A stretch of 64,000 bases of DNA from Actinomycetes bacterium (GCA_036392615.1 DASVXQ010000414.1:204-64203); one strand, 5' to 3'; shown: positions 6,542 through 55,110, numbered from the stretch's first letter. Numbers and translations are program-made. The notes: a model not told the origin generated them from the sequence alone.

Positions 6542-6637
6542 TTCGCGGCCGCGCGGCAAGCGCGGTTGCCACCCATCTGGAATGCGGCCTGCATTGAAGA
6601 GGTGCAGGCGTGGCGTTAGGCTCGTGCGCGGTGACGA

Positions 6638-10163: not shown

Positions 10164-12257
10164 CTACCCCAGCAACAGGCCGAGGTCTTGAGCGCGCCGG
10201 ATCGCCCCACTGCGGGACGAGACGCCGAACTTCCGGTAGATCGAGATCGCCTGCGTCTTGACCGTGTGCGGCGAGAGGTCCATCCGCTCGCCGATCTCGC
10301 GGAAGCAGCGGTAGGTCGCCAGCTGTGGGAGCAGTCGCAGCTCCGCCGCGGTGAGCAGCGACGCCACCACGACGTCGGTGCGAATGGTGTCGAGCCGGGC
10401 CGCCAGCTCGTCGGCCTGCTCACGAAGAACCCCCAGGTCGGGCCAGCGGTGGAGCGCGTCGTCGACCTCTCGGAGCAGGTCTTTGGCGCCACGCACGTCC
10501 ATCAGGGCGGTGCGGGCGCGGATCAGCTCCAGCACGGTCTGGACCCCGTAGAACGGCACGGCCTCGGTGCAGCGGGGCCGCAGCCGCTCGGCCCGGTCGA
10601 GGTGCTCGCGCGCCGCGGGCATGTCGCCGCGGTGAATGGCCAGGCGGGCCCCCACGGCGTACAGCAGCGTGCTGCTGGCGTAGTCGTCCAGGCGGTGGTC
10701 GCGCACGACCGCGCCCGCCCGTCCGGCGAGGCTGGTGGGCTCGTTTGAGTCGTCCCGGTCCATCGCCAGCGTGGCGCGCTCGGCGAGCGCGACCGAGACG
10801 GTCTCGGCCGCGCCGAGGTCCTCCGCCACCTCGGCCGCGCGGGCCAGGGCGGTGTCCGCGCCGTCGATGTCCCCGGTCAGGCGCTGCGAGATCCCCGGGA
10901 GGAGCAGCGCGCGCGCCCGCCAAGGGCTGGAAACGGGCAGCCGCTCCAGCGCTATGGCGGCGTCCTTGCCCATCCGCTCGGCGCCCTGGCGGCACATCCC
11001 CGCCTGCAGCACCGCCAGCCATCCATCGAGTGAGGCGCTGCCGTCCGGCAAGGGCTCCTCGAGCGATCCGCCCGTGGCCTCGTCCGCCCAGCGCTCGGCG
11101 TCGGCGGGGTGACCCGCGAGCAGGTGGACCCAGGCCCCGAGCACCGCAATGCCCGGATAGCGCTGAACCAGCCGCTGGTCTTCGAACCAGTCGAGCCACC
11201 GCTGCAGGGTGGCGGCGCGCCCCTGGTTGTAGACGGAGAGCGCGGCCTCCAGGACCAGGCGGGCGACCCGATCGGCGTCGCCCGCCTGCATGGCGTATTC
11301 GACGGCGTCCTCGGGCAGGCCATTGCGCTCGCACCACTGCGCCGCGCGGCGGGTGAGCGCACCGGCCAGACCGGGCTCGCGGCGCTCGAGTTCCGAACGC
11401 AGCAGCTCCTGGAACAGTTGGTGGTACCGGTACCACCACCGGTTACGGTCGAGTGGGACCAGCAACAGCCTTGATCGCTCCAACGACTCAAGCACTTTGC
11501 CCGACCCCGAGCGCTCGAGCACCGCGTCGCAGAGCGGCCCGGACAGCCGGTCGAGCACCGAGGTCCGCGTCAGGAACCGGACGTGCTCGTCGTCCAAGCC
11601 CTCCAGGAGCACGGATCGTAGGTGGTCGACCACAAAGCGACTGTCGGCCACCCACGCCGTGCTTGGACGCTGGGGAGACCGCATCCGCAGCGAGAGGCCG
11701 GCGAGGTGCAGCGCGACCGGCCAGCCCTCCGTGCGGCGGGTGAGCTCGGCGACGTCGGCCTCGGAGACGTCCACCTCGACCCGGCGGAGCAGCGAGGAGG
11801 CCTCGTCCTGGTCCATCGCGAGATCGTCGGGGCCGATCTCGACCACGCCGCCCTCGGCGCGCAGCCGCGCGACCGGCAGCGGCGGCTGGGCCCGGCCAGC
11901 GAGAACCACCTGCGACGCTCCACGGAGATGCCTGGCCAGCTCCACGAGCGCGCCCAGACCATCCGAGTGCTGGAGCCGGTGGGCGTCGTCGAGCACCACC
12001 ACGCCCGGCTCCTCTCGGCAAAGGGCGGCGACGTCGGTGAGCAGGGTGGTGGGGTCATCGCCGTGCCGGTCGACGGAGAGCCAGGCGAACGGCCGCGGGT
12101 CCCGCTCTGCCCACTGCTTCAGGAGCGTCGTCTTGCCGTACCCGGGCGGCGCGACGATGGCGACGACCGGGACGGCGCTTGAGGCCTTCAGGCGCTCGAG
12201 CAGGTCAGTCCGAGGCACCGTATCGCGGCGCAGTTTGGTCGGTCCTGTCTGGATCAT
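10164..12257 (-). CDS. MalT-like LuxR-family regulator, paralog of 6638 (P-loop NTPase + helical repeats + LuxR HTH)
   Basis: IVAPPGYGKTTLL; WYRYHQLFQELLRSELERREPGL (compare WYRYHHLFRDLLRSELERREPDL in 6638); C-terminal LTAAELRLLPQLATYRCFREIGERMDLSPHTVKTQAISIYRKFGVSSRSGAIRRAQDLGLLLG-stop. The start could be as far upstream as 12344. Confidence 0.75.
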   Translation of the reverse strand: MIQTGPTKLRRDTVPRTDLLERLKASSAVPVVAIVAPPGYGKTTLLKQWAERDPRPFAWLSVDRHGDDPTTLLTDVAALCREEPGVVVLDDAHRLQHSDGLGALVELARHLRGASQVVLAGRAQPPLPVARLRAEGGVVEIGPDDLAMDQDEASSLLRRVEVDVSEADVAELTRRTEGWPVALHLAGLSLRMRSPQRPSTAWVADSRFVVDHLRSVLLEGLDDEHVRFLTRTSVLDRLSGPLCDAVLERSGSGKVLESLERSRLLLVPLDRNRWWYRYHQLFQELLRSELERREPGLAGALTRRAAQWCERNGLPEDAVEYAMQAGDADRVARLVLEAALSVYNQGRAATLQRWLDWFEDQRLVQRYPGIAVLGAWVHLLAGHPADAERWADEATGGSLEEPLPDGSASLDGWLAVLQAGMCRQGAERMGKDAAIALERLPVSSPWRARALLLPGISQRLTGDIDGADTALARAAEVAEDLGAAETVSVALAERATLAMDRDDSNEPTSLAGRAGAVVRDHRLDDYASSTLLYAVGARLAIHRGDMPAAREHLDRAERLRPRCTEAVPFYGVQTVLELIRARTALMDVRGAKDLLREVDDALHRWPDLGVLREQADELAARLDTIRTDVVVASLLTAAELRLLPQLATYRCFREIGERMDLSPHTVKTQAISIYRKFGVSSRSGAIRRAQDLGLLLG

Positions 12258-12433
12258 CACGGGCCCCCCTGGACCGCGGATCGCAGATGCTCGCTGGCGG
12301 CGGGTCCCCGAGGTTGCGGGCTCCGCCGCGGTTGCGTCCCGCAACGAACTGGTCTCCGTGTCACCCTAGAGGCATCGGCATGCCCCCTCGTGGAGACCAA
12401 CGCCCCGGGACCTCCCGGGACCCATCGTCGCGC

Positions 12434-18374: not shown

Positions 18375-18605
18375 TTACTGGCCGACAGCGTGGTCCCGCG
18401 AAGGTGTCATGCGCAGTAGCTGGTCGCGGAGCTGGCGGGTGGGTTCGGAGGGGTCGTCGCCGAGGTTGGCCATGCGCAGCTCCGGTCGGCGATAGGTGCG
18501 GCGGGTCTCCTCGACGTGGCCGAGTTGCGCGTGGACGCGCATGATCTGCTGGTACAGCTCCTCGTTGTAGGGATCCCAGCGGACCGCCTGCTCGAGCAGC
18601 TCACC
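18375..18605 (-). pseudogene. C-terminal BTAD (bacterial transcriptional activator domain) fragment of a SARP/AfsR-type regulator
   Basis: LLEQAVRWDPYNEELYQQIMRVHAQLGHVEETRRTYRRPELRMANLGDDPSEPTRQLRDQLL matches the BTAD consensus (..DP..E.....LM.....G......Y......L..ELG..PS..T..L...I). No N-terminal wHTH is present. Confidence 0.45.
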
Positions 18606-18860
18606 AGCCTTGACCAGACCGTCGGCGAGCTGCTCGCCCGTCACCTGCCCAAGGGCGCCGACCCGCGCCTGGCCCGGGTCGCCGTCGAGCAGCTGCTGAC
18701 CATGACCAGCGGGCTGGCCGGCGACGACCCGTCGCTGGGCGGCGACCGAAGCGTGATGGACGGCCTGATTGGCAGCCGCGACTGGGTCCGCCACATCCTG
18801 GGCGGGCGGCTGGCCACAACACCGGGGACCCGCTTTGCCTACAGCAGCGCGAGGATGCCG
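18606..18860 (+). pseudogene. Internal fragment of a serine hydrolase / class-C beta-lactamase-family protein
   Basis: VGELLARHLP...VAVEQLLTMTSGLAGDDP....WVRHILGGRLATTPGTRFAYSSA resembles the '...LLTHTSGL... PG..F.YSN' block. The SxxK nucleophile region and the C-terminus are missing. Confidence 0.4.
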
Positions 18861-19158
18861 ACAACCTGATCGGCGAGACGATCATCCCGGCCGTCACCGG
18901 CTAGCCGTCTGGACAGCCTCCTGTCAGGGCGAGCCGTGTCAGCTGCGGCGAAAGTAGCGCGGGGAGGTGGGCGCCTTCGCGGAGTTCCGGACGCAACCAT
19001 CGGGTGCTTGGGGAGCGGCTGCTCTGCCTCCTCAAGCCGATCACAGTGGCAACGACCCCGGCGGATCACGCCAGACCGCACAGCGAGCTTGCGCCCTCCG
19101 TGGTGGTTCAACGGCGTCGGACCAGCTGCGAACGCCCCGGTGGCAGCAGTCCGGAGGC

Positions 19159-19578: not shown

Positions 19579-19799
19579 TGCCGCCTCTCCTTGTGGGGGC
19601 ATATCTCCACGTTCAGTGTGCTTTCCGGTGGCGGCCGCGGCGACGGCCGGAGGACCCTCGACCGGTGGGACGTCCGGCGAGTCCTGGGCTCCATCGTCCG
19701 AAAACGGAGCCGGCCAGCCACACCGGCGCGGCGCTTGCATGGGCCCGAAATGAAGCCTTCCAGTTCACCTATTGCCGAACTCAGCCAGCCGTGACTGCC

Positions 19800-19995
19800 A
19801 GGTGGCTGTGCTGATCGGCGACCAGCTGCTGGGCAAATGCCCGGCCGGCCCCATGCGCGCCCTCAACCGCCCAGCATCGCTGCGGCCAGGGCCCAGCCCA
19901 TTCACGCAAGTGCTGATAGCCAACGTGGGTAGCTGGGAAGTGCTGCTGGTCCAGCAGCCGGCCGTGCTCATCCAGCGCGGCGGCGGTCTGGGAGC
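19800..19995 (-). mobile_element. IS110-family transposase, N-terminal fragment only
   Basis: My translation of the minus strand gives ALDEHGRLLDQQHFPATHVGYQHLREWAGPWPQRCWAVEGAHGAGRAFAQQLVAD. This is the typical DEDD_Tnp_IS110 N-terminal pattern, truncated at both ends. Confidence 0.5.
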
Positions 19996-19997
19996 CT

Positions 19998-20290
19998 TAG
20001 AGGTCGCTTTGAGCAGTGGGGAGTCGTGGCGGTTCGCCTCCGCCAGGACCCTGCCCAGCGGGATGCCGTAGCCGTCGGTCACGCCGGAACGCTTCAGGCC
20101 CTGTTTGCCCCGGTCCGCCGGGGAGCGGCCGGCCGCTTCGCCGCCTCCGGGGGCCTTGGTGATCGCGCCGTCGACGGCGATCCGCTTCAGCTCCAGCCGA
20201 CGATGCGGTCGTAGGCGTCCAGAGCGATCTGTTTGAGGGTGCTGAAGACGCCGAGCTCGATCCACTCGTCGCGACGGTGGTGCTGTGCCG
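19998..20290 (-). mobile_element. IS5/IS4-superfamily (DUF4096 + DDE_Tnp_1 type) transposase internal fragment with a frameshift
   Basis: DEWIELGVFSTLKQIALDAYDRIVG (one frame) continues as LELKRIAVDGAITKAPGGGEAAGRSPADRGKQGLKRSGVTDGYGIPLGRVLAEANRHDSPLL (another frame). Compare the IS5-like '...IDGS.v.A..GGe.tG.nP.DRgK.G.K.h...D..G.PL......AN.HD...L'. Confidence 0.5.
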
Positions 20291-20346
20291 TGCTGATGTG
20301 TGCTGGCTGGTGTTGGAGCCGATGGACGCACGATGGACGCACATCG
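20287..20346 (+). repeat. Imperfect direct repeat, copy 1 (partner at 63931-63989; 15-nt core also at 61262-61276)
   Basis: AGCCGATGGACGCACGATGGACGCACATCG (20317-20346) versus AGCCGATGGACGCACCATGGACACATATCG (63960-63989): 27 of 30 positions identical, ungapped. Upstream the copies share the blocks GCCGTGCTG and GGTGTTGG, with indels between them. Confidence 0.5.
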
Positions 20347-20587: not shown

Positions 20588-23500
20588 GTGGCTGAGCCAT
20601 TTGTCGTCAAGGGAGGGGTCCGCCCGCGCAGGCAGGGCGGCTCCGTCGCCGGGTACACGGTCGAAGGGCGCCTAAAGCGCGTGATCGGCGACGCAGGAGA
20701 GTCCGTGGAGGTGCCGGCGTCGGGGCGCGCCCGGCTCGAAGCGCCAGGTACGTTCGAGTTCGCCGTCGATGGGCCGGGTGAGCCCAGCGGGCCGCTGACC
20801 CTCACCGTGAGCGCCCCGGATGGCACGAGCGTCTTCAGCGCCGAATACACGCTCGAGGAGGCAAGCCGGCCGCTCCGCATCCGGGTCGAGACCCGGCCGA
20901 AGTTCGACATCGAGCCGAGCAACGATCCCACGCTCGGGGCCCGCACGCGCCTGACCGGCGAGGTGATCGACGCCCACGGCCGCGACGTGCCCGCCGCGCT
21001 GCCGGTTGTCATCTGGGCGACCGACCCGTCCGCCAACGGGGCGCAGCCGGCCCCGCGGCCGCTGCTGGTGACCGAGACCCAGTCCGGCGGGAGCTTCTCC
21101 GCGGACTGGCCTGCCGACGTCCTGGCCGAGGCCGAGGGTCGCGTCTCCGGCGCCGATCCCGTGCCGGTTCCGCTCGACGACGCCGGGCGCCTGCCCGCGC
21201 GCATCCTGCTGGTGGTCGACCTGGACGAGGTGGAGGGCCTCGACCCCGACGACACCTGCGGGTGCTCCGACACGCCGCCGCGCGCCGTCGACCCGGGAGA
21301 CGTCACCGCCAACCCGACGGCGTTCTCGCAGGACCTGGGCGGCGGCTGCGTCGAGCTCTCGATGCCCGACCGCACGCTCGAGGAGTTCAGCTACTTCACC
21401 GTGGTCCGCACGTCCGAGCCCGCCGTCAAGGGCGTCACCCTCGGCACCCGCACCGCGGTGCCCGACGTCCTCATCGCCGACCTGCTCGCCGTCTCGGTCG
21501 CTTCGCAGGCGCTCAAGGGCGAGGTGGTCACCGGGTCCCTGAGCCGCCTGCCCGTCCAGGGGCTGATGCTGGACGCCGCCACGGCGAAGGTGCTTGTGCG
21601 CACCGACCGGCCGCCCAGCGTCGCCGAGATCGGGCGGGCCGCCTGGCTCTCAAGCGTCGGCCAGACCAAGGAGCTGATCGACGCCGGTCTGCGCGTCGAC
21701 ACCGGCCGCACCGTGCTGGACGCCGACCACGCGATCGACTGGGACGACACGCCGACCGTCCACTTGGCCATCCAGATCGCGCACGGCCACGTGCTGCAGT
21801 ACCGCGAGGTGTGGCGCGCGGACGGCTACTCCCTGGGGGACCTGCTCTACTCGCTGCCGCTCGCGCCTGGTCAGCGCCGCCAGGTGGCGGTCGTGGACTG
21901 GGACCGGCGCGCGAGTTCGGCGCGGACCGAGAGCCTCGAGTTCGAGGAGGAGCTCGACGCGCTCCTGGCTCGCGACCGCGATATCAGGGAGATCGTCGGC
22001 TCCGACCTTCACGAGCAGACGTCGGCTGGGTCGCGCAACACGACGTGGGGAGTCGCCGGCGGCATCGGTGCCGGATTCATCGGCAGCGGCTTCGGGATCT
22101 TCGGCGGTGTGGCCGGCGGGGCCGGAGGCTCGGACTCGAGCTCGTGGCAGCGCTCTTCGCGGCAGTTCGCCGCTGACTCGCTGCAGAGCCTCCGCGATCG
22201 CGTGTCGCAGCGGGCCTCGTCGACTCGCAGCCTGCGCTCGTCGGTCGTGCAGAGCGTCGCCCAGGGCGAGACCCTGCGTGCTGAGACCGAGCTCGTCGCC
22301 AACTACAACCACTGCCACGCGATCACAATCGAGTACTTCCAGGTACTGCGCCATCTGCTGGTCACGCACGAGCTGGCCGACGTTCAGGAGTGCCTGTTCG
22401 TTCCGCTGCCGGTCGGGGAGTTCGACCGCGGCAAGGCGCTTCGCTGGAGGGAGCCCCTGACCCGCTACCTCAGGGACCGCAGCCTTCGCGGCGGGTTCGA
22501 CGCGATCGAGCGCGTCGCCGACAACTGGGTCGGGTGGGACTTCCCCGAGTCCCGGTACAGCGAGGAGGCCCCTGAGTCGCTCGAGGGCGAGCTGCGGATC
22601 AGCTTCCTGCTGCCGCGACCCCGCGACGACGAGGATGGCAAGTTCCAGGTCGACCAGTGGAAGTGGCTCCTGCCCTTCCTGCCGACCGACGCGCTCGAGC
22701 TTTGGACCGCCCGGCTCAACGAGCGCACCGCCCGCGAGCGCGACCGCATCTTCCGCGAGGAGGTCGCACCCGAGATCGCCAAGAACCTCGTCAACCAGTT
22801 GCGCTTCGCGTACGTCGGAGCCGACGGCGGCGAGACGGAGATCTCGCTCGACGCGACGCTCGTCTCGCGTTACGCGGAGCGGACGCCGCTGTACGTCACC
22901 CTCAACCCCCGCGGCTCCCTTCCTGCGGTCCCGCGGGAGGACATCGCGCACTTCAAGCTGTGGTACGCGGGGACAGCGCTGCCGCCCGACGCGCAGATCA
23001 TCGTCCACAGCGGCCGGCTGCGCTACAACGCGGCGCACTCGAGCGCGCTGCTGTTCGACGACCCGCGGATCCTGGACGACATCCGTTCCGGCGACCCGGT
23101 CATCGTCAGCACCCCGGTCAGCCGCGCCGAGCTTCGCAACCCGCGAGACGAGGACCGCGACTTCGCCGACCGCCTGGTCGCCCACCTCAACCAGGCGCTG
23201 GAGTACTACCACCAGGCGATTTGGGTGAGTCTGGACGCACAGCGCCGCTACATGCTGCTGGACGCGGTCCTGGTGCCCGGCCTCGGCGGCAAGAGCATCG
23301 CGAGCGTCTGCACCAACGAGCTGATCGGCATCGTCGGCAACAACCTCGTACTGCCGGTCGCGCCCGGACAGCGCCTCGACCCGAGTCTCGCCGACCTCGA
23401 CCCCGAGCAGGGGCGCGTGGAGCTGATCAACGCCTACGCCACGCCGCCCAGCCCGCCGCTTCGCATCAGCATCCCCACCCGCGGCGTCTACGCCGAAGCC

Positions 23501-25837
23501 GTCTCCGGCAAGTGCAGCGCCTGCGAGGAGATCGACGACAGCCGCTACTGGCGCTGGACGCCCGACGGGCAGCTCGCCCTGCCCGAGATCAGCCCCGTCT
23601 CGACCGCGAGCCGCGCCAGCGAGGAGCCGGACCTGACGCCCACGCCGCTCCCCACGCCGCTGGTCTCGATCCAGAACGCCCCCGAGGTCCCGGACCCGTT
23701 CGGGCTCAAGTCCGCGTTCGAGCTGATCTCCAAGCCCGACCTGTTCCGCGACATCACCGGCCTGGAGGGCACGCAGAAGAACGCGCGCGCCGCCTTCGAG
23801 GGTGCCCTGTCGGCCGCGTCGGCGCTCGGCGAGCAGGCGCACACCCTCGCCACGCAGCAGGAGCTCGGCAAGAACGCCGGCCGGATGATCGACCGCATCA
23901 GCCAGGCGAAGAAGGACGGCCTGCTGACCGATGCCAGCGCGCAGGCGCTCACCAACTCGGCGCTCAAGGGGCTCGTCGGCGAGCCGCGCAAGGACGAGGC
24001 CACGCCTGGGACACCGGACCCGGTGAAGGACGTGGTGGACAAGGCCTCGCAGGCGGACAAGGCCGAGATCAAGGTCACGAACCCCACCGAGACCGTCGAG
24101 GTCAGCTTCGACGAGACTTCCGCCCCAGCGGTTGGTGGAGGGGCGAAGCCGCAGATCTTCGATCCGCCGGACCCGTTCGTCGACCAGGACATCGTCATCG
24201 AACAGCCGGCGTCGTTCAACGCCGCGCCTGGGGCGCGCTCCCTGAACAGCGGGCGCGTGACGACCTACGCCCAGCTCGCCAAGGTCCTCGGTGCCGGCCT
24301 CGCCAAGATGGAGGCCGATGTCAAGGTTCGCAAGAACCCCGCCGACCTGTCCAAATACCAGCTGCGAAGCCAGCTTCGGATTGCCTACCCGGCCGACCCC
24401 AAGGCGCCGACGCGGGTCTTCGGCTCCGGCCGCCTGCCCGTCGTCGTGATCGCCCACGGTATGTTCGGGAAGAACTGGTCCCTGGGGGCCTCCCACCCGA
24501 GCCACGAGGGGTACACGTACCTGCAGGAGGCCCTCGCGGGGCAGGGAATCGTGTCGGTGTCGGTCGACATGAACGCGGCGAACTTCTTCCGGTCGATCGT
24601 CGAGATGCGCGCGGAGATGTTCCTGGGCGCGCTCGACCGGCTGAGGGCGATGGACGCCGACAAGACCTCCCGGTTCTTCGGGCGGCTCGACTTCGACAAG
24701 GTCGGTGTCATGGGTCACTCCCGGGGTGGGGAGGCCGCCGTTGCCGCCGCCCGGCTGAACGCCGCCCGCACGACCAACAAGTACGGCGTCAAGGCCGTCT
24801 GCGCGCTCTCGCCGACCGACTGGACCGGCACCCTGGTGCCCGCCCAAGTCATCACCGCGGACGCGGCGTCGACGCCGTTCCTGCTCGTTCTGTACCCGGG
24901 GCTCGACGGAGACCTCGGCGGGGACGGCGGCGCGCGGAGCTGGGAGGGTACCGGATTCCGCACCTACGACCGTTCCGGCAGCGACAAGTCCATCGTGATG
25001 ATCGACCACGCATGCCACAACCGGTTCAACACGCAGTGGACGCCTGAAGAGGACACCATCCATCCCGACGACACCAAGCCGGGCGGACGCCTGCTCGTCG
25101 CCGCCGACCACCAGAAGCTGGCAAGCGAGTACATCGGCGGCCTGTTCCGCTGGAAGCTCCTGGGCCAGACCTCGCAGCGGGACTTGTTCACCGGGAAGAA
25201 GGTGAACGGCCGCGGGACACCGACGTCGATCCAGTGGTCGTTCGGCGCCAAACGCCAGCCGCTGGACGAGCTCGAGCCCGGCGTGGCGCCGCCCGCCGGA
25301 ACCCGCACGCTGGTCGACTCCGCCGTTGCGCTGATGCCCGACATCCAGGTGCCGCGCGGCGCGGGGACGGCAAGACTGGAGATGGAGACCAACCACCAGG
25401 CCGGTGTGCTCGCCGTTGCCCCGGGGCAGCTCGGCCCGGCGCTGACCACCTACCGGCTCGACCTGCCGAGCCCGCAGGACTGGACGGGCTTCGACCAGCT
25501 GACCTTCCGGCTGGCCGTCGACGCGGATCTCTCCACCGCGGCGACGATTGCCGCCTCCCCCAACCCTGAGTACGAGCTACGGATCATCGACGACGCCGGC
25601 AAGACGGCGATCGTCCCGAGCTCCAAGCTCCAGACTCCGCCGAAGCCCGTCTTCCACACGTATGGCGCCCCGGGTGGCAACGAGAACTGCACCGTCATCC
25701 GGCTGCAGACGATCGCGGTGCCGGTCACGTCGCTCACGGGGATCGACCGGACCAAGGTCAAGGTCGTCGAGATCCTGCCGCGCGCCAGCTTCACCAACGT
25801 CATGTTCTTTGACTCGCTTCAGCTCGTCAGGCAGTGA
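20588..25837 (+). CDS. Giant protein A (1749 aa): N-terminal beta-sandwich-like region + large uncharacterised conserved core + C-terminal alpha/beta-hydrolase (GHSRGG) and beta-sandwich (CBM-like) cassette
   Basis: Uninterrupted ORF. GTG 20588 lies 7 nt after GAGGAG. The core is collinear with ORF 26141 (WRADGYSLGDLLYSLPLAPGQ; ANYNHCHAITIEYFQVLRH; YYHQAIWVSLDAQRRYMLLD; GKCSACEEIDDSRYWRW). The tail has RLPVVVIAHG, GVMGHSRGGEAA (Ser codon 24719-24721), LYPGLDGD and IDHACHNRFN. Confidence 0.8.
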   Translation: MAEPFVVKGGVRPRRQGGSVAGYTVEGRLKRVIGDAGESVEVPASGRARLEAPGTFEFAVDGPGEPSGPLTLTVSAPDGTSVFSAEYTLEEASRPLRIRVETRPKFDIEPSNDPTLGARTRLTGEVIDAHGRDVPAALPVVIWATDPSANGAQPAPRPLLVTETQSGGSFSADWPADVLAEAEGRVSGADPVPVPLDDAGRLPARILLVVDLDEVEGLDPDDTCGCSDTPPRAVDPGDVTANPTAFSQDLGGGCVELSMPDRTLEEFSYFTVVRTSEPAVKGVTLGTRTAVPDVLIADLLAVSVASQALKGEVVTGSLSRLPVQGLMLDAATAKVLVRTDRPPSVAEIGRAAWLSSVGQTKELIDAGLRVDTGRTVLDADHAIDWDDTPTVHLAIQIAHGHVLQYREVWRADGYSLGDLLYSLPLAPGQRRQVAVVDWDRRASSARTESLEFEEELDALLARDRDIREIVGSDLHEQTSAGSRNTTWGVAGGIGAGFIGSGFGIFGGVAGGAGGSDSSSWQRSSRQFAADSLQSLRDRVSQRASSTRSLRSSVVQSVAQGETLRAETELVANYNHCHAITIEYFQVLRHLLVTHELADVQECLFVPLPVGEFDRGKALRWREPLTRYLRDRSLRGGFDAIERVADNWVGWDFPESRYSEEAPESLEGELRISFLLPRPRDDEDGKFQVDQWKWLLPFLPTDALELWTARLNERTARERDRIFREEVAPEIAKNLVNQLRFAYVGADGGETEISLDATLVSRYAERTPLYVTLNPRGSLPAVPREDIAHFKLWYAGTALPPDAQIIVHSGRLRYNAAHSSALLFDDPRILDDIRSGDPVIVSTPVSRAELRNPRDEDRDFADRLVAHLNQALEYYHQAIWVSLDAQRRYMLLDAVLVPGLGGKSIASVCTNELIGIVGNNLVLPVAPGQRLDPSLADLDPEQGRVELINAYATPPSPPLRISIPTRGVYAEAVSGKCSACEEIDDSRYWRWTPDGQLALPEISPVSTASRASEEPDLTPTPLPTPLVSIQNAPEVPDPFGLKSAFELISKPDLFRDITGLEGTQKNARAAFEGALSAASALGEQAHTLATQQELGKNAGRMIDRISQAKKDGLLTDASAQALTNSALKGLVGEPRKDEATPGTPDPVKDVVDKASQADKAEIKVTNPTETVEVSFDETSAPAVGGGAKPQIFDPPDPFVDQDIVIEQPASFNAAPGARSLNSGRVTTYAQLAKVLGAGLAKMEADVKVRKNPADLSKYQLRSQLRIAYPADPKAPTRVFGSGRLPVVVIAHGMFGKNWSLGASHPSHEGYTYLQEALAGQGIVSVSVDMNAANFFRSIVEMRAEMFLGALDRLRAMDADKTSRFFGRLDFDKVGVMGHSRGGEAAVAAARLNAARTTNKYGVKAVCALSPTDWTGTLVPAQVITADAASTPFLLVLYPGLDGDLGGDGGARSWEGTGFRTYDRSGSDKSIVMIDHACHNRFNTQWTPEEDTIHPDDTKPGGRLLVAADHQKLASEYIGGLFRWKLLGQTSQRDLFTGKKVNGRGTPTSIQWSFGAKRQPLDELEPGVAPPAGTRTLVDSAVALMPDIQVPRGAGTARLEMETNHQAGVLAVAPGQLGPALTTYRLDLPSPQDWTGFDQLTFRLAVDADLSTAATIAASPNPEYELRIIDDAGKTAIVPSSKLQTPPKPVFHTYGAPGGNENCTVIRLQTIAVPVTSLTGIDRTKVKVVEILPRASFTNVMFFDSLQLVRQ

Positions 25838-25848
25838 AAGGACTCGCC

Positions 25849-26130
25849 ATGAACGTCACCGACGTCATCTTCGAGCGACCCGACGACCCGCCGGACCCCG
25901 CCTACGTGCTCCGCGTCAGCATCGTCGGGACCGGACTCACCAGGTCGGGCCCCCAGCTCGTCGCGCAGGTCGGGGACATCCCGGTGCGCGACCTGATCAG
26001 CCTGTTCGAACAGGAAGGGGTCGTGGGGTTCCTGGAGGCCGAGCCGCCGGTGGGCGCAGCCGTGCGGGTGGGGTATCTGGGCAAGGAAATGATCGACAGC
26101 GGCCAGAGCTACCAGCCGCCGAACGTCTGA
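25849..26130 (+). CDS. Small 93-aa protein of unknown function wedged between the two giant genes
   Basis: ATG 25849 is preceded by GAAAGGA and lies 11 nt after the stop of A. Its stop lies 10 nt before the ATG of B. Product: MNVTDVIFERPDDPPDPAYVLRVSIVGTGLTRSGPQLVAQVGDIPVRDLISLFEQEGVVGFLEAEPPVGAAVRVGYLGKEMIDSGQSYQPPNV (beta-rich, acidic, no TM or signal). Confidence 0.55.
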   Translation: MNVTDVIFERPDDPPDPAYVLRVSIVGTGLTRSGPQLVAQVGDIPVRDLISLFEQEGVVGFLEAEPPVGAAVRVGYLGKEMIDSGQSYQPPNV

Positions 26131-26140
26131 GGGGACGACC

Positions 26141-29100
26141 ATGACACGCATCGCCGGCAAGCTGACCTCCGACACAGCGGGTGATCTGTCCGGCCTGAGC
26201 GTGGTCGCCACCTTCGAGGAGCGCGTCCAGATCGGTGACGCGAGCGACTTCCGCCCTGGCCGCCGCGAGACCCAGACCGGCCCAGGCGGGCAGTTCGATC
26301 TGGAGGTCCCCGACGCAGACGGCCGGCGCGGTCCGGTCACGATCACCGCCTACGGTAGGGACGGGCTCGACACGGGCGAGGTCGAGCTGGCGGCCGAGGG
26401 CCCGTTCGACGAGGTCGTGGTCGAGGTCGCACTGGGAACGCCGACGTCGGTCACACCCAGCGACGACATCACCCTCGGCGAGCAGCTCAAGTACACGGGG
26501 CGGGTCATCGACCCGTCCGGCCGCGGAGTCGACGCGGGCCTGATAACCGTCATCTGGGCGCGGGCCGATGGCGAGGATCCCGCTCCGGTCAGCGTGACCC
26601 GCACCGCCCAGGCGGGATACATCTCCGGGCCGTGGGTGTCGCAGACCTACGCGGAGGCCTACGGGGTGGTGTCGGGCGGTGAGCCGATCCCAATCGCACT
26701 CGAAGACTCGCGGTTGCCTCGCCGGTTGATCCTGGTGGTGCCGGTCGCTCCGGCGCAGCCGCACGACGACGACTGCGAGTGCCACGAGACAGGTCCGCTT
26801 CGCTCGCCGGACCAGGTCGACCTGGCCGGCAACCCCGAGGCGTTCGCCCGCGACGCGACCGGCTGCGTCGACTTCACGATCCCCAGCCGGACGGTCGAGG
26901 AGGTCACCTACCAGGCGGTGGTCCGCACGACCCAGCCGGCGCTCAAGGGGACCGTTCCCCGGCGTCCGCCCGTGATCCCGCCCGTCCTGATCGACCGCCT
27001 TGCCAACCTGGCTGAGCTTGGGCTGGCGTTCGACGACCGCGTCGCGGGAGGGCGGTTCATCCGCAGCAACGTGACGACCACACCGGCGCTGACCGCCCGC
27101 GAGGCAGCGGACAACCCCGGACTGGAGGTGACGGATATCGGACGGGGCGGCGCCGCGATCGACGTCGTGACGGCCGCCCTGCGGACGGCTCGGCGCATCC
27201 TGCCGGGCATCGACCTGGACAGCGGAACGTTCCTCGCCGACCCGCCCGACACCATGGCGCGCCGCGCACTGGCGGCGCGGGTCGCCGACCGCGAGCCGCT
27301 TCGCCTGGAGGCATCGGTCATCGGCGAGCTCGTCCGCGAGCCCGGCGGGGTCACCTCGCGCCGCCTGCTCGAGGCGGAGCAGACGAGCGTCGTCCGGTCG
27401 TTCCGGACGGCCGTCGGCCTGCTGGCCACGCCGAACCCCGGGCGCCACGAGCTGGACGACACCCACCAGATCGACTGGGAGCAGATCCCCGACCCGTACC
27501 AGGCGACCACGATCGCCCACGGGCACCTGCTGACGATGAAGCAGGTCTGGCGCGCGGACGGGTACTCGCGCGGCGACCTGCTCTACTCGCTGCCGCTCGC
27601 GCCTGGGCAGCAGAAGCTGATCTCGATCTTGGACTGGAACAGAAGCGAGGTCTCGTCCCGGCGGGCGCAGCGGTTCGAGACCGAGGACCTGCGCGCCGAC
27701 CTGGACCACGACCGCGACGTCTCCGACGTCATCCGCACGACGCTGAGCGAGCGGATGGACGCGAGCTCGCACGCCGACACCGAATCCGTGGCGGCAGGGA
27801 TCGCCGGGTTCATCGGCCCGGTGGTATTCGGCGCGGCGGGCGGCGTCTCGTCCGCGGGCTCGAACGCCAACCAGACATCGGCACGCTCAGTGACGGGCAT
27901 GGCCCTGAACCGCGTCCGCGACCGCACGCTGCAGTCGGCGTCCGCCGTGCGAAGCCAGCGCGCGAGCGTCGTCCAGACGGCCCGCCAGGGCGAGTCGGTG
28001 CGGGCGCAGACCGAGGTCGTCGCCAACTACAACCACTGCCACGCCCTGACGATGGAGTACTTCGAGGTGCTCCGCCACCTCCAGGTCAGCCAGGAGCTCG
28101 CGGCGGTCGACGAATGCCTGTTCATCCCGTTCTCGATCACCCCGTTCAGCGCGAGTAAGGCGCTTCGCTGGCGCGATCCCCTGCGACGCGGCCTTCGCGA
28201 TCGTTCGCTCGAGTGGGCCTTCGACGCGCTCGAGCGGGTCGACAGCAACTGGGTGGACGCCGACTTCCCCGCGGGGCGCTACGCTGACGAGCCGCTCACC
28301 TACCTGGACGGCGAGTTCTGGATTTCGGCGCGCCTGCCCCGCCCGGCCGACGGGGCCAACGGCGAGTTCGCCCAGACGAACTGGAACGCCTACGAGAGCG
28401 CGGGGCTGCTGTGGGACTCGGCGGCGAACATCTGGAACCGGTACATGGGAACCACCGTCGCGGCGCTCCGCGACCGCGTTTGGGACACCCGCGTGGCTCC
28501 CGGCATCGCGCAGCGCCTGCTCGAGCGGCTCACCGTACGCCTGGCGGAGGACGGCGCGGCGTCGTCGACGCTCTCGGTCGACCCGACCCTGGTGGACTCG
28601 TTCGCCCAGGATCGGGAGATGCTCGTCGCGCTCCGAGTCAACACGCCGCTCCCGGTCAAGACCCGCAGCCAGGTCGACCGGGTCGAGATCTCCCTCGCGG
28701 TCACCAACCTGCCCCCGGGGGCGGAGCTGACCGTTCGAAGCGGCACGGTGCGCTACCGCACCGACCATCTGACCGCCGACCTGTTCGGCAGCCGGCGGAT
28801 CCAGAACGACCTGACCCTCGGCGACACCGTCGAGATCGCCACGCCGCTGACGCTGCAGGAAAAACGCGACCCGCGCCAGCGCGACCGCCGGTATGCCGCG
28901 CGGCTCCTGGATCACCTGAACGACCACGTCGAGCACTACCACCGGGCCATCTGGCTGACCATGGACCCGAACCGTCGCTACATGCTGCTGGACGGCTTCG
29001 TCGCACCGGACGCCGGCGGCAAGAGCGTCGCGTCAGTGGTCGAGAACCGCGTGATCGGCGTCGTCGGCAACAGCCTGGTCATGCGCGTGGCGCCCGGCAT

Positions 29101-30361
29101 CAAGCTCGACTCCACCTACCAGTACGCGGGCCGCACAGTCAACGACCTCCGCAACCTCTACGCGGGCGAGTCGGCGCCGCCGATGCGGATCAGCCTGCCG
29201 ACCTCCGGCATCTTCGCCGAGGCCGTCCTGGGCAAATGCAACAGCTGCGAGACGATCGACGACACCAGGTTCTGGCGCTGGGAGGAGGCCCCGATCCCGG
29301 ACCGGCCCACACCGATCCAGGCGCTCTCGACCGACAGCCGCCGCACCACGCCGCCGTCGCTCACCCCGGACCAGTTCCCCGACGCCCTGGTGCGTCTGCA
29401 GGACGTGCCGTCCGCCCCGGACCCGACCGGGCTGGGCGCCGCCCTCGCTGCGCTCGGCATGGGCAACATCTTCAAGGACCTGACCGGCCTCGCGCTGAAC
29501 CAGTCGAACGCCGCCGAGGGGCTCAAGGCGTCGCTCACCGCGGCGCAGGGGTTCGCCTCGCGCGCCGGCGCGCTCGCGCAGCAGAAGTTCCTCAACCGCG
29601 AGCTCGACCGAAGCCTCGACCACATCAAGGACGCCCGCGACAAGAAGCTCATCACCGACGACCAGGCGAAGTCACTCACCGAGAGCGTCCTGCGCGGCGC
29701 GATCGGCGAGCCGAGGCCGCAGCAGGCCTCGCCGATCGACGACCCGGCGGTCCAGCGGGCGATGGAGCGGGTGCCCAGGTCGGCGAACGGATCGCTCCGG
29801 GTGGTCCGGCCCGACGGAACCGTCGAGGTCAAGACGGGCCGGGCGGTGTCGCCGGCGATCGACGTGGCCGTCGACCCGGCGGTCGCGCCGGTCCTTCAGC
29901 CGAGCGACATGACCTGCTGGGCGGCGGGCGGCACGATGATGGACTCCTGGCGAGCGCAGCAATCCAAGACCATCGAGTCTGTGCTCGACCAGCTCGGCGG
30001 GGACTGGCGCACGAAGTTCGACGCCAACGAGGGGTTGAGCGCCGCCGAGTTCCGCGCGTTCGCCGGTGTCCTCAATCTGGTGGAGGAGGGGCCGGCCAGC
30101 TACACGCCGCAGGGCCTGGCACGGCTCCTGACCGAGCGTGGGCCGTTGCTCGAGATCGGCGACGACGGGATCGAGAACAACAAGATCGTCCACGTGCGGA
30201 TCATCACGGCGGTCAGGGGCGATGGCAGCGCCGATGGGACAACGGTCACCCTCGCCGACTCGGCCACCGGCACGATCGTCACCGAGCCGTTCTCCGAATT
30301 CGACCGCCGCCACGGCGCCACCGACGCCGTCGACGTCGGCCTGGGGCTCTTCCACTACTGA
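26141..30361 (+). CDS. Giant protein B (1406 aa): paralog of A over the N-terminal region and core, with a different C-terminal papain-like cysteine peptidase/amidase cassette
   Basis: ATG 26141 follows GAGGGGA. Core motifs: WRADGYSRGDLLYSLPLAPGQ, ANYNHCHALTMEYFEVLRH, HYHRAIWLTMDPNRRYMLLD, GKCNSCETIDDTRFWRW. The tail has LQPSDMTCWAAGGTMMDSW (Gln 29897, Cys 29915) and NKIVHVRIITAVRGDG (His 30191). Confidence 0.8.
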   Translation: MTRIAGKLTSDTAGDLSGLSVVATFEERVQIGDASDFRPGRRETQTGPGGQFDLEVPDADGRRGPVTITAYGRDGLDTGEVELAAEGPFDEVVVEVALGTPTSVTPSDDITLGEQLKYTGRVIDPSGRGVDAGLITVIWARADGEDPAPVSVTRTAQAGYISGPWVSQTYAEAYGVVSGGEPIPIALEDSRLPRRLILVVPVAPAQPHDDDCECHETGPLRSPDQVDLAGNPEAFARDATGCVDFTIPSRTVEEVTYQAVVRTTQPALKGTVPRRPPVIPPVLIDRLANLAELGLAFDDRVAGGRFIRSNVTTTPALTAREAADNPGLEVTDIGRGGAAIDVVTAALRTARRILPGIDLDSGTFLADPPDTMARRALAARVADREPLRLEASVIGELVREPGGVTSRRLLEAEQTSVVRSFRTAVGLLATPNPGRHELDDTHQIDWEQIPDPYQATTIAHGHLLTMKQVWRADGYSRGDLLYSLPLAPGQQKLISILDWNRSEVSSRRAQRFETEDLRADLDHDRDVSDVIRTTLSERMDASSHADTESVAAGIAGFIGPVVFGAAGGVSSAGSNANQTSARSVTGMALNRVRDRTLQSASAVRSQRASVVQTARQGESVRAQTEVVANYNHCHALTMEYFEVLRHLQVSQELAAVDECLFIPFSITPFSASKALRWRDPLRRGLRDRSLEWAFDALERVDSNWVDADFPAGRYADEPLTYLDGEFWISARLPRPADGANGEFAQTNWNAYESAGLLWDSAANIWNRYMGTTVAALRDRVWDTRVAPGIAQRLLERLTVRLAEDGAASSTLSVDPTLVDSFAQDREMLVALRVNTPLPVKTRSQVDRVEISLAVTNLPPGAELTVRSGTVRYRTDHLTADLFGSRRIQNDLTLGDTVEIATPLTLQEKRDPRQRDRRYAARLLDHLNDHVEHYHRAIWLTMDPNRRYMLLDGFVAPDAGGKSVASVVENRVIGVVGNSLVMRVAPGIKLDSTYQYAGRTVNDLRNLYAGESAPPMRISLPTSGIFAEAVLGKCNSCETIDDTRFWRWEEAPIPDRPTPIQALSTDSRRTTPPSLTPDQFPDALVRLQDVPSAPDPTGLGAALAALGMGNIFKDLTGLALNQSNAAEGLKASLTAAQGFASRAGALAQQKFLNRELDRSLDHIKDARDKKLITDDQAKSLTESVLRGAIGEPRPQQASPIDDPAVQRAMERVPRSANGSLRVVRPDGTVEVKTGRAVSPAIDVAVDPAVAPVLQPSDMTCWAAGGTMMDSWRAQQSKTIESVLDQLGGDWRTKFDANEGLSAAEFRAFAGVLNLVEEGPASYTPQGLARLLTERGPLLEIGDDGIENNKIVHVRIITAVRGDGSADGTTVTLADSATGTIVTEPFSEFDRRHGATDAVDVGLGLFHY

Positions 30362-44475: not shown

Positions 44476-44519
44476 GGTCTAGGCCCTCCAACCGAGCGGC
44501 CGGAGATGCGGTGATTGGC

Positions 44520-44571
44520 CATGCCGGCAGTCTCGCCGCTCGAACGCGGTCACAGCGAATGCAACAGTGCC
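44520..44571 (-). repeat. Inverted-repeat arm R2 (partner R1 at 42973-43024)
   Basis: See R1. The + strand reads CATGCCGGCAGTCTCGCCGCTCGAACGCGGTCACAGCGAATGCAACAGTGCC. Confidence 0.6.
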
Positions 44572-44677
44572 GCGGCGAATGGCTTCGGATTGCTTGGGCG
44601 GACGAGCGTCCGATAGGCTGCGGCGCCCCGAGCGAAGCGGGTTATCTGGACATACCGGCAGCCGCAAGGAGCCCCCC

Positions 44678-45511
44678 ATGCCCCGGACCCCCTCCGACCC
44701 CTACGAGCAGTACCCCGACCAGCGGTACGGCTACCAGCAGCACCCCGACCAGCAGCCCACCTACCAGGAGCACCCGGACCAGCGGTATCCCGATCAGGGG
44801 TACGCGCAGCAGCAGTATCCGGACCAGCGGTATGCCCAGCAGCAGTACCCCGATCAGCGGTATGCCCAGCAGCAGTACGGCCAGCAGCAGCACTATTCCC
44901 ACCGGTACCAGCAGGCGCCGGCGGTGGCGGGCCGGCTGATGGACCACTCGAGCTTCATCGTCGATCAGAAGGTGAAGCTGATCGAGCTTCGCAACGAGTA
45001 TTCGATCTACGACGACGGCGGCAACACGATCGGGTCGGTGAAGCAGATCGGGCAGTCGGCCCTGATCCGGGTGCTCCGGCTGTTCATCAAGACCGACTCG
45101 CTCCTGGGCATCACGCTGGAGATCCGTGAGGCGAGCGGCGCCGTCGCCCTGCTGCTCCGCAAGCCGGCGTTCCGGATCACCTGCACGATCTCGTCGCCGG
45201 ATGGCACGGCGATCGGCCGTATCGCGGCCAAGATCCGTGTGGGCAAGGTCCGCATGGCGATTACCGACCCTTCCGGGAACGTGCTCGGCGAGATCCGCGC
45301 GGAGAACCTGCGGGCCTGGAATTTCAACGTGCAGGACGCGCAGGGCCGGCTGATCGCCCGGGTCGACAAGAAGTGGGCGGGTGCGCGCGAGCTGTTCACG
45401 ACGGCGGACAAGTACCGGGTGGAGCTGGACCCCAAGCTCGGCGACCCGCTGCGCAGCCTGGTGGTCGCTTCCTGCCTGGCCATCGACACGCTGCTGAAGC
45501 AGCAGCAGTAG
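44678..45511 (+). CDS. Scramblase/LURP-one-related (DUF567-type, tubby-like fold) protein with an N-terminal Gln/Tyr/Pro-rich repeat region
   Basis: ATG 44678 follows AAGGAG. The N-terminus has YPDQRYGYQQHPDQQPTYQEHPDQRYPDQGYAQQQYPDQRYAQQQYPDQRYAQQQY. The body has FIVDQKVKLIELRNEYSIYDDGGNTIGSVKQ ... LLRKPAFRITCTISSPDGTAIGRIAAK ... AWNFNVQDAQGRLIARVDKKWAG ... YRVELD. Confidence 0.65.
   Translation: MPRTPSDPYEQYPDQRYGYQQHPDQQPTYQEHPDQRYPDQGYAQQQYPDQRYAQQQYPDQRYAQQQYGQQQHYSHRYQQAPAVAGRLMDHSSFIVDQKVKLIELRNEYSIYDDGGNTIGSVKQIGQSALIRVLRLFIKTDSLLGITLEIREASGAVALLLRKPAFRITCTISSPDGTAIGRIAAKIRVGKVRMAITDPSGNVLGEIRAENLRAWNFNVQDAQGRLIARVDKKWAGARELFTTADKYRVELDPKLGDPLRSLVVASCLAIDTLLKQQQ
44707..44920 (+). repeat. 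In-frame degenerate tandem repeat (about 30-nt unit) encoding the YPDQRYAQQQ array
   Basis: CAGCAGCAGTATCCGGACCAGCGGTATGCC (44808-44837) is followed directly by CAGCAGCAGTACCCCGATCAGCGGTATGCC (44838-44867). More diverged units lie upstream. Confidence 0.7.
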
Positions 45512-54208: not shown

Positions 54209-55110
54209 TATTGGACCCCCCCAGGCCCTATTTCTGATGCCCCACCCGGTGGGACATCCGGCGACGGCAAGGTGCCCTGCAACGTCAGGACGACCTGACG
54301 CCATCCCACGTATGGGAGCATCGAGAGGCTCGCTGCGTCCAGTCCTTTCTGGCAATAGCAATACCACGGAGCGGACATCTGCTCGGTGACCGGCGGCACA
54401 GGCCATCCGTGCCGCTCGATACAGGCAGCGAGGCGCATCAGCAAGGTTGAACGCACCGCCGCCGACCCTAGCCCCTCCGCACGCAACGAGTCCGTGGTTC
54501 TGGGATGTGCCCCCTGGCGCGACTCGCACCAGAACCAAGCGCTCCACCCGGTGCATCTAGCGCCAGGACCGCCGATACGACCACCCCACGCCGCCGACCA
54601 GATCGCTGGACGTGCTGTCGCGAGTTCACATCGTGGGCAGGGAACGATCAGATCCTTGGAACCCGTGTAGTTCAGCTGGCAGCGGAATATGCCGATCTGC
54701 CTAGCACCACAACGGCGCATACGGTGGTAAACGAGACGCCCGTCCAGCTGAAGGGTGCGCAAACTCAAACGTGACTGGTTACCTGGTAATTCGCGTGGGA
54801 CGGCCGCTCGGCATGCTGAGGCCCATCGACCCCTCGGAGGCTGTCCGGGTGTCAGGGAGAGCACCGCCTGGGTTCCATGGGGTTTTCCCCGCTGGTAGGC
54901 TTGGCCCACAGCGGCCGGAGGGCATAGCTGCACAGATAGGGGCGGTGTGTCCGACCACGATCGGCTGCGGATATCTCGTTCTGGCTCGAGTTGCCCATGG
55001 CCATGATGCAGCATCCAACCAGCGCACCATGATTGCCGGCATCCAGCCTGGTGTGGAGCACACAGCGGTGGTTCCCGCGTCGCTTGCAGGGGCTAGCGGG
55101 TGAGGTTGAC

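Follow-up and report, generated by a model that had tools for sequence, protein, structure and literature searches.

Do two giant paralogous proteins, encoded side by side and ending in different enzymes, form a polymorphic toxin locus? The question is raised by a stretch of 64,000 nucleotides (nt) from an Actinomycetes bacterium (GCA_036392615.1 DASVXQ010000414.1:204-64203; hereafter, the window), in which three co-directional genes, here named A, S and B, occupy positions 20588 to 30361. A preliminary description of this DNA had proposed a polymorphic effector or toxin system in which a shared scaffold carries interchangeable C-terminal cassettes. Our analysis supports this interpretation for the superfamily to which the large proteins belong and contradicts it for the locus itself. 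The three genes are the following.

20588-25837, + strand: gene A, a scaffold protein of 1,749 amino acids (aa) with a C-terminal serine-hydrolase head (open reading frame translation, homologue N-termini, Shine-Dalgarno sequence, GC content at third codon positions)
25849-26130, + strand: small open reading frame (ORF) S, 93 aa, acidic and cysteine-free (AAGGA Shine-Dalgarno sequence, orthologues in triads)
26141-30361, + strand: gene B, a scaffold protein of 1,406 aa with a C-terminal C70 cysteine protease (GGGGA Shine-Dalgarno sequence, Pfam)

The coordinates and direction of the three ORFs and the gaps between them, 11 nt from A to S and 10 nt from S to B, were as described earlier. The reading frame of A is open already from 20456. 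The GTG at 20588 was favored as the likely start because the N-termini of homologues begin at equivalent residues and an AGGAGA Shine-Dalgarno sequence is found 6 nt upstream. S and B start at ATG codons, at 25849 and 26141, with AAGGA and GGGGA upstream, respectively. The GC content at third codon positions (GC3) was 0.92 in A, 0.86 in S and 0.92 in B, which indicates that the + strand frames are coding.

The amino acid sequences of A and B were compared and, at this level, they are clear paralogues with a similarity far beyond chance. They share 43% identity over 826 aa in BLASTP (E = 0), and their N-termini share 38% identity over 268 aa (E = 1e-37). The collinear region extends for about 1,190 aa, every motif block previously quoted for it was found, and the similarity fades about 55 aa past the tetrapeptide GEPR (A aa 1131-1134; B aa 1189-1192), after which the proteins diverge. 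Both the collinear paralogy and the divergence beyond the GEPR linker asserted in the preliminary description were thereby reproduced.

The shared core could not be assigned to any family in the databases searched, as had been noted before. Scans of A, S and B against Pfam, NCBIfam, PHROGs and PADLOC matched the heads only, and the core had no match in the PDB by single-sequence search or by a family profile of 46 sequences. No well-characterized family came out of the profile and PDB searches. RHS, LXG, PAAR, haemagglutinin-repeat and ALF-type domains were not found in A or B with Pfam and NCBIfam, and a simple hydropathy scan of both proteins revealed neither a signal peptide nor a strong transmembrane segment, in agreement with the earlier statement that the hallmarks of known delivery families are absent. 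The highest hydropathy peak in B corresponds to a glycine-rich segment, AAGIAGFIGPVVFGAAGGV. Relatives in annotated public records are named after their tails only, or are called hypothetical. Literature searches, including targeted term searches of PMC3482391 and PMC12352652, gave no description of the scaffold family.

The heads of A and B, located as listed below, belong to different enzyme classes.

24392-25807, + strand: head of A, alpha/beta serine hydrolase plus beta-sandwich, aa 1269-1740 (Pfam PETase; phmmer match to PDB 9xg1)
24713-24730, 24902-24922 and 25013-25030, + strand: putative catalytic triad of the A head, with Ser in GHSRGG, Asp in LDGD and His in CHNRFN, respectively
29894-30304, + strand: head of B, Peptidase_C70 (AvrRpt2-like), aa 1252-1388 (Pfam PF12385)
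29915-29932, 30188-30205 and 30251-30271, + strand: catalytic motifs of the B head, with Cys1259 in CWAAGG, His in VHVRII and Asp in LADSATG, respectively

The head of A matched PDB 9xg1, a 'Protein-asparaginase', in phmmer (E = 5e-21) over the hydrolase and the beta-sandwich together, and the two proteins share GHSRGG, the DGD motif and the HN.FN motif. The match to Pfam PETase (E = 4.7e-6, 26.6 bits) fell just under the gathering cutoff of 28, and a weaker likeness to PETases and cutinases was also seen. GHSRGG, DGD and the His of CHNRFN were invariant in four A orthologues from three phyla. Judged by these matches, the head of A is an alpha/beta serine hydrolase of the protein-asparaginase/PETase-like kind. 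The head of B matched Peptidase_C70 (PF12385) with E = 5.5e-17 and 62.4 bits, where the gathering cutoff is 19, and the Cys, His and Asp columns of C70 were at least 90% conserved among 67 sequences. The conservation of these residues firmly supports the prediction that both heads are catalytically intact. The earlier assignments, an alpha/beta-hydrolase plus beta-sandwich at the end of A and a papain-like Cys peptidase at the end of B, were borne out, and relatives retain the catalytic residues of either cassette.

The extent of the family was assessed with a profile of the A and B cores, the sample consisting of species-level representatives and clusters at 50% identity. The search retrieved 3,603 such clusters at E <= 1e-3, of which 1,835 had E <= 1e-30, and the proteins ranged from 1,100 to 2,587 aa. 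The 300 to 500 residues that precede the profile at the N-terminus were homologous in 122 of the 123 members long enough to compare, and a signal-peptide-like N-terminus was seen in none of 129 complete representatives. A pattern scan of GTDB species genomes found 304 relatives in more than 15 phyla. The spread is patchy, with about 300 matches among 185,579 species genomes, and the scan added as carriers Nitrospira, Bdellovibrio, Myxococcus, Flavobacteriaceae, Verrucomicrobia, Brocadiaceae, Gemmatimonadaceae, Obscuribacterales, Calditrichia, Desulfobacteraceae and Entotheonella. Plasmids also carry copies, among them plasmids of Streptomyces clavuligerus, Psychrobacter, Bacillus tropicus, Nostoc and the haloarchaeon Haladaptatus. 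In Haladaptatus sp. YSMS36 (H26) the members on haloarchaeal plasmids are annotated as DUF2272 proteins. Another member is carried by a contig of 36% GC binned as Nitrosopumilus in a metagenome-assembled genome (MAG; locus L034), where a binning error is possible. Some members have an added N-terminal DNA-binding domain of the ComEA-type helix-hairpin-helix (HHH_3) kind, among them a Tenacibaculum protein (L071, 7904-13540), which ends in a tyrosinase domain, a Bdellovibrio protein (L060, 8477-12694) and P0245.

The sequences that follow the core in this family are highly diverse. Among 249 tails, 48 unrelated BLAST clusters were distinguished, 36 of them singletons. There are pairs of members that are 67-76% identical from residue 1 to about residue 1,200 and share nothing over their last 300 to 640 residues, the similarity stopping just past the GEPR junction. 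Unrelated tails on scaffolds this similar are the mark of C-terminal cassettes exchanged by recombination. The contrast between a conserved core and a variable region past the junction, suggested in the preliminary description, was thus confirmed across the superfamily. The tails that could be identified include GH25, Peptidase_M15_4, PG_binding_1, OmpA, tyrosinase, amidase_2, DUF4056, reprolysin-like metallopeptidase, GH75 and Peptidase_C11, and PKD-like, RibLong, tectonin and beta-lactamase-family domains also occur as tails or accessory domains. These are overwhelmingly of types predicted to be extracytoplasmic, with envelope- or protein-acting hydrolases among them. Nuclease, deaminase and ADP-ribosyltransferase tails were not seen among the about 25 tail types scanned. 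In several members C70 follows the core but is itself followed by another domain: amidase_2 (P0203), a beta-lactamase-like domain (P0184), tectonin (P0209) or a domain of unrecognized type (P0189, P0245 and P0230). This order suggests that C70 would act as a releasing protease rather than always being the payload. Taken as a whole, these comparisons firmly support the assignment of the large proteins of the A-S-B locus to a very large unannotated superfamily whose members combine a scaffold with a swappable C-terminal enzyme.

At three loci (L058, L060 and L068) the core gene has a tail of only 80 to 101 aa, followed by an abutting or overlapping ORF of 320 to 440 aa on the same strand. These ORFs may be split or frameshifted heads, or separate cargo; the one at L060, from Bdellovibrio, had no Pfam match.

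The orthologues of A and B gave a different picture from that of the superfamily. The best 120 homologues of the B core share 42-67% identity with it, and 118 of them carry C70 (PF12385); the other two are truncated. Loci were then taken from GTDB genomes and their six-frame ORFs were scanned with hidden Markov models of the core, S, the A tail and the B tail. In the 32 loci that include S, an A-type tail was found on a core gene in 31 and C70 also in 31, the two exceptions being L009, where A is frameshifted, and L061, where the contig ends. This triad was found in Actinomycetota, Acidobacteriota, Chloroflexota, Bacillota (a Heliobacteriaceae MAG), and Alpha- and Gammaproteobacteria. The same gene order, set within unrelated flanks, was seen in Micromonospora soli, a Terriglobales MAG and Rhizomicrobium palustre, with a PETase-like protein of 1,727-1,826 aa, an S-type ORF of 93-100 aa and a C70 protein of 1,329-1,427 aa. 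The A orthologues (1,708-1,968 aa) are upstream of the B orthologues and share 43-61% identity across phyla. Over the best segment, the B core from the window is 51-73% identical to those of the other triad loci, which points to horizontal transfer under strong purifying selection. Actinomycetota and Gammaproteobacteria are 63-73% identical over the best segment of B, so the phylogeny is incongruent with the taxonomy. These results firmly support the view that A, S and B make up a conserved, horizontally mobile three-gene module present in at least five phyla.

The S protein was always found between A and B in the 32 loci, with 27-32% identity across phyla, and was never seen with other tail types in the sampled loci. 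S has no homologue in Pfam or in the PDB (the latter also searched with a four-sequence profile), and the large proteins, when searched for sequence resembling S, showed no homology to it in any part. On this genomic evidence S is a fixed third component of the triad rather than an immunity gene placed downstream. Roughly half of the loci retrieved consist of one gene alone, and there are a few pairs where S was not detectable (L031, L045, L062 and L078/L079). In the triads L008, L009 and L022, which come from MAG assemblies, A or B is split in two ORFs by frameshifts, through decay or assembly error.

Because the orthologues keep the same heads, the A/B pair is not a polymorphic locus. The swapped-cassette system of the preliminary description therefore stood for the superfamily, with its 48 tail types, and fell for this locus, where homologues of A and B hold on to one C-terminus each. 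The same observations bear on the idea of a classical polymorphic toxin-immunity system, in which A and B would be alternative toxins delivered into competitors and S an immunity protein or a chaperone. A scaffold conserved throughout the family with swapped C-terminal cassettes, a sporadic and horizontally transferred distribution, and enzymatic heads with intact active sites would all be expected from such a system. However, neither of the two heads changes across at least five phyla, and the S gene lies between the two large genes, is conserved across phyla at the level given above and does not accompany other tails in the sample. No co-directional ORF follows the stop codon in the low-GC singleton loci (L034, L035, L065 and L073), and no recurrent downstream family that could be immunity-like was found across the fetched loci. 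Neither a known trafficking domain nor linkage to a secretion system was found, and the tails scanned lack the nucleases, deaminases and ADP-ribosyltransferases mentioned above. We consider this explanation quite unlikely.

The distribution of the genes is also relevant to a self-directed function, in which the proteins would be envelope or developmental machinery, a surface or wall scaffold that places remodeling enzymes on the cell's own envelope or matrix and is not a weapon. The wall-binding and wall-modifying tails (OmpA, PG_binding_1, amidase, tyrosinase), the lack of immunity genes in the loci searched and the strong purifying selection on the triad, seen in the identity of A across phyla, are compatible with this role. 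On the other hand, the very patchy occurrence, the incongruence between the B phylogeny and taxonomy, the plasmid copies and the frameshifted state of some triads speak against it, and the rampant swapping of tails indicates an accessory, conflict-type gene rather than a housekeeping one. A self-directed function appears improbable to us.

The neighborhoods of the superfamily members were inspected for recurrent partners, small ones in particular, as had been recommended in the preliminary description. Clustering of the neighboring ORFs in the fetched loci revealed no recurrent partner family; there were only antisense artefacts and generic ABC transporter or STAND genes. S remained restricted to the A-B triads, and no conserved neighbors indicated linkage to a secretion system. 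An example of the antisense ORFs is present within A itself (1,248 aa, 21650-25396, - strand); GC3 favors the + strand and it is therefore taken as a high-GC artefact, of the same kind as those that dominated the clustering in related loci. In a Bacillus tropicus plasmid (L081, 7383-10700) a member is found beside genes for a SIR2-family protein, a helix-turn-helix regulator, an ATP-dependent helicase, an AAA ATPase and an integrase, a setting that looks like a defense or mobile island.

An intracellular conflict function, either anti-phage defense or abortive infection, would have the scaffold detect infection from within the cytoplasm, lesion the membrane and release lytic or proteolytic effectors, like a fused holin-endolysin that kills the host cell. 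This model would account for the lack of a signal peptide, for stand-alone mobile genes in variable regions and on plasmids, and for the many endolysin-type tails (GH25, amidase_2, M15, PG_binding_1). Proteases are known defense effectors, and the Bacillus tropicus plasmid copy has SIR2, helicase and AAA-ATPase genes nearby. Nevertheless, the PADLOC models (2023 library) matched none of A, S and B, defense genes were not recurrent neighbors in the fetched loci, and the core has no recognizable NTPase or nucleic-acid sensor domain. The beta-sandwich, PKD-like, tectonin, OmpA and ComEA-like HHH_3 domains, as well as the tyrosinase and GH75 heads, fit an extracellular role better. The probability of this explanation is, in our opinion, low.

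Long beta-structures combined with C-terminal peptidoglycan hydrolases are typical of tail-associated lysins, and the large proteins could in principle be phage or prophage structural proteins, such as tail or tape-measure-like proteins with a virion-associated lysin. One member does occur in a phage record. This record (L082; MT835996.1, 322-4701), labeled 'UNVERIFIED Bacteriophage sp.', is an unannotated, high-GC metagenomic contig of 20 kb from human feces that encodes a member of 1,459 aa and is probably a misclassified bacterial contig. It was the only match in 50,697 phage records, and no relatives were found in IMG/VR. PHROGs matched the hydrolase head alone, a Foldseek search of BFVD with the first model described below gave only two short local matches at E <= 0.001 (about 220-230 columns, TM-scores 0.05-0.06), and no phage genes recur nearby. 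A phage origin is largely refuted by these results, and we regard it as very improbable indeed.

Is there anything in the predicted structure of the scaffold that suggests what it does? The scaffold has about 1,150 to 1,200 aa. Its N-terminal part comprises two beta-sandwiches, a Cys-containing segment and a helical region; next come three beta-hairpins of great length, whose hydrophobic tip is glycine-zipper-like, and a novel alpha/beta domain; and a CxxC segment, a Pro-rich segment and a helical stalk ending in GEPR complete it. The His/Cys motifs HGH, NHCH, CxC and CxxC are invariant or nearly so in the family and may bind metal. The corresponding regions of the two genes are listed here.

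20588-21187, + strand: A, N-terminal tandem beta-sandwich region, inferred from the alignment to the modeled B region (38% identity)
21704-23992, + strand: A, conserved core, aa 373-1135, used for the family profile
21779-21793, 22049-22129 and 22301-22321, + strand: A, core motifs AHGH, glycine-rich hydrophobic segment and NYNHCHA, respectively
23507-23527 and 23978-23989, + strand: A, core motifs of the 3' part, GKCSACE and GEPR, respectively
26141-26740, + strand: B, N-terminal tandem beta-sandwiches, aa 1-200 (AlphaFold, pLDDT above 90)
27515-28129, + strand: B, long beta-hairpin module, aa 459-663 (second AlphaFold model, Foldseek, hydropathy)
27515-27529, 27791-27847 and 28025-28045, + strand: B, motifs of the hairpin module, AHGH, glycine-rich hydrophobic tip AAGIAGFIGPVVFGAAGGV and NYNHCHA, respectively
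28133-29110, + strand: B, alpha/beta domain of no recognized fold, aa 665-990 (pLDDT above 90 in both models)
29231-29716, + strand: B, GKCNSCE/DDTRFWRW segment, Pro-rich segment and helical stalk to GEPR (29705-29716), the junction before the variable head

A first AlphaFold2 model was made of B aa 1-1200 with 67 sequences. The N-terminal beta-sandwiches and the alpha/beta domain (aa 660-990) were predicted with confidence (predicted local distance difference test, pLDDT, above 90), and confidence was low at aa 440-656, the most conserved stretch, and at aa 993-1117. Foldseek searches of this model in the PDB and BFVD returned, as top matches, mainly beta-sandwich and pilin-like proteins (the latter SpaA/BcpA, about E = 1e-4) and nothing attributable to the core. 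A second model covered B aa 430-1125, used 50 more diverse sequences and had a mean pLDDT of 73. It contains six strands of 20 to 28 residues that form three very long hairpins, the outer strands having pLDDT values of 74-89 and the central glycine-rich hairpin values below 50. The top PDB neighbors of the second model in Foldseek were all pore-state structures: aerolysin, epsilon toxin, lysenin, CDTb, iota Ib and anthrax PA. For the alpha/beta domain (B aa 665-990), no match attributable to it was present among the PDB and BFVD matches listed. In 131 representatives the central segment keeps its glycines in the pattern G..G...G...G..GG, with Ser/Thr-rich stretches on both sides. The likeness to the stems of beta-pore-forming toxins is weak, and we take it as a lead rather than as a sign of membership.

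Based on this lead and on the domain orders, a mechanism can be proposed. The scaffold would oligomerize, at this locus as a hetero-oligomer of A and B with S as an assembly partner. The hairpins would insert in the membrane as a beta-barrel-like pore or anchor, and the C-terminal enzymes would thereby be exposed or delivered to the envelope or the exterior with no dedicated secretion system. C70 would be a maturation or release protease, acting in cis in the relatives with the order core, C70 and cargo, and in trans on the hydrolase of A in the present case. The targets of the payloads would be extracytoplasmic (protein, peptidoglycan or chitosan), most plausibly in competition or predation. 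In this scheme it is inferred that the scaffold oligomerizes and enters a membrane, that C70 has this role and that the function is antagonistic. A processing role for C70 is judged likelier than that of a pure terminal effector because of the core-C70-cargo architectures. We estimate that a self-contained, oligomeric, membrane-inserting scaffold that deploys enzymes, with C70 as its maturation protease, has somewhat less than an even chance of being correct. A broader version, in which the core is a new deployment device independent of secretion systems, a polypeptide or an A/B/S hetero-oligomer that inserts glycine-tipped hairpins into a membrane, takes its exchangeable cargo across it or onto it, amounts to a fused binary toxin with C70 built in for maturation, and serves inter-microbial antagonism in bacteria and on archaeal plasmids, is possible and rather doubtful.

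Several points weigh against this proposal. The pore-form Foldseek matches are weak (E = 3e-4 to 1e-2; TM-score, 0.05-0.14; root-mean-square deviation, 24-37 A), the central hairpin is modeled at a pLDDT below 50, and the outer strands contain many charged residues without being obviously amphipathic. The localization, the oligomerization and the processing of A and B are predictions, and the mechanism provides no route out of the cytoplasm for a protein of 150-190 kDa. The terminal C70 of B could simply be an effector, by analogy with AvrRpt2 or with EvpQ, an effector of a type VI secretion system (T6SS; PMC7991086). Intracellularly acting toxins may exist among the tails beyond the approximately 25 types scanned, and the commonest singleton tail (about 390 aa, in 24 representative clusters) has no recognizable function.

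Comparison with known systems helps to place the family. Polymorphic toxin systems include Rhs/YD, CdiA, LXG, MafB, TANFOR and Umb toxins (Zhang et al. 2012, PMC3482391; TANFOR, PMC7073777). As in those systems, a large conserved N-terminal module is combined with recombining C-terminal enzyme cassettes, and the distribution is sporadic and horizontal. Unlike them, the present scaffold has no similarity to known trafficking or repeat domains, and the family has no signal peptide, no linkage to a secretion system and no adjacent immunity gene in the loci searched; the tails seen are envelope- or protein-acting hydrolases, and the heads of the A-S-B triad are fixed. The superfamily shares the logic of polymorphic toxins, but of their defining features it lacks two that were tested, namely an immunity gene next to the toxin gene and a recognized route of trafficking.

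The beta-pore-forming toxins and binary-toxin translocases resemble the scaffold in the modeled long hairpins and in a glycine-rich hydrophobic tip located between Ser/Thr-rich stretches, and PA, CDTb and Ib translocate enzymes, a parallel to an enzyme-carrying scaffold. No other structural neighbors were found for the core. The match is nevertheless weak and local, in the TM-score range already given, with a low-confidence hairpin and no sequence similarity, and the scaffold proteins are three to five times larger, have their cargo fused to the putative pore former and lack a signal peptide. Modular protein bacteriocins (colicins, S-pyocins, pesticin, bacteriolysins) bind, then translocate and then kill through a C-terminal enzyme, muramidase and peptidase heads included, and are encoded by stand-alone genes. 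The domain logic may be common to both groups, and both have stand-alone genes, but there is no homology, the scaffold proteins are much larger, and immunity or lysis genes are missing.

Single-chain toxins that contain an autoprocessing cysteine protease, namely MARTX and the large clostridial toxins with their CPD (C80), as well as the 'releasing peptidases' known from polymorphic toxins (Zhang et al. 2012), are similar to several relatives in which C70 is placed between the scaffold and an amidase_2, beta-lactamase-like or tectonin domain. They differ in that the protease here is C70 and not C80, and that of B is terminal, for which reason the predicted processing would need to act in trans. 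The AvrRpt2/Peptidase_C70 effectors comprise AvrRpt2 of P. syringae and the T6SS effector EvpQ (PMC7991086). The head of B scores above the Pfam gathering threshold and has the conserved Cys, His and Asp of this group, but it is mounted on a scaffold of 1,200 aa, in free-living soil or aquatic bacteria, with no context of a type III secretion system or T6SS. The head of A differs from 9xg1 and the PETase-cutinase hydrolases in that it scores below the gathering threshold of Pfam PETase and is a C-terminal cassette of a giant protein.

The remainder of the window includes other genes worth recording. To the left of A there is a DDE_Tnp_1 transposase fragment (19765-20331, - strand), a weak match (E = 1e-3), and a truncated beta-lactamase-family fragment (18420-18869, + strand), with an intact universal-stress-protein gene between them. 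The insertion sequence fragments reported on this side in the preliminary description are thus weakly supported, since they amount to that transposase match accompanied by the beta-lactamase-family fragment. A 342-aa ORF (44483-45511, + strand) matches the Scramblase family of Pfam (E = 3.6e-15), a mainly eukaryotic family that is unusual for a genome of the actinobacterial type. Three large STAND/AAA-LuxR(GerE)-TPR regulators are encoded at 6635-9388 (+ strand), 10164-12365 (- strand) and 55033-58377 (+ strand), one of them fused to a carboxymuconolactone-decarboxylase-like domain.

If the proposed interpretation is correct, thousands of very large proteins that are now named after their tails, with labels such as 'papain-like cysteine protease family protein', 'OmpA family protein', 'DUF2272 domain-containing protein' and 'hypothetical protein', would be brought together in a single modular system. 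The scaffold would be a new fold, independent of known secretion machinery, that operates in monoderm and diderm bacteria and is present on haloarchaeal plasmids, and the known polymorphic effectors would gain a further class of delivery or trafficking. The system would also pose a testable question, the route by which proteins of 150-280 kDa with no signal peptide reach extracytoplasmic targets. The tails would constitute a ready collection of heads that degrade walls, proteins and polymers, many with no known family, on a natural enzyme-swapping chassis. The A-S-B triad, with only three genes, two predicted enzymatic activities and obvious sites for point mutation, offers a practical way into this family.

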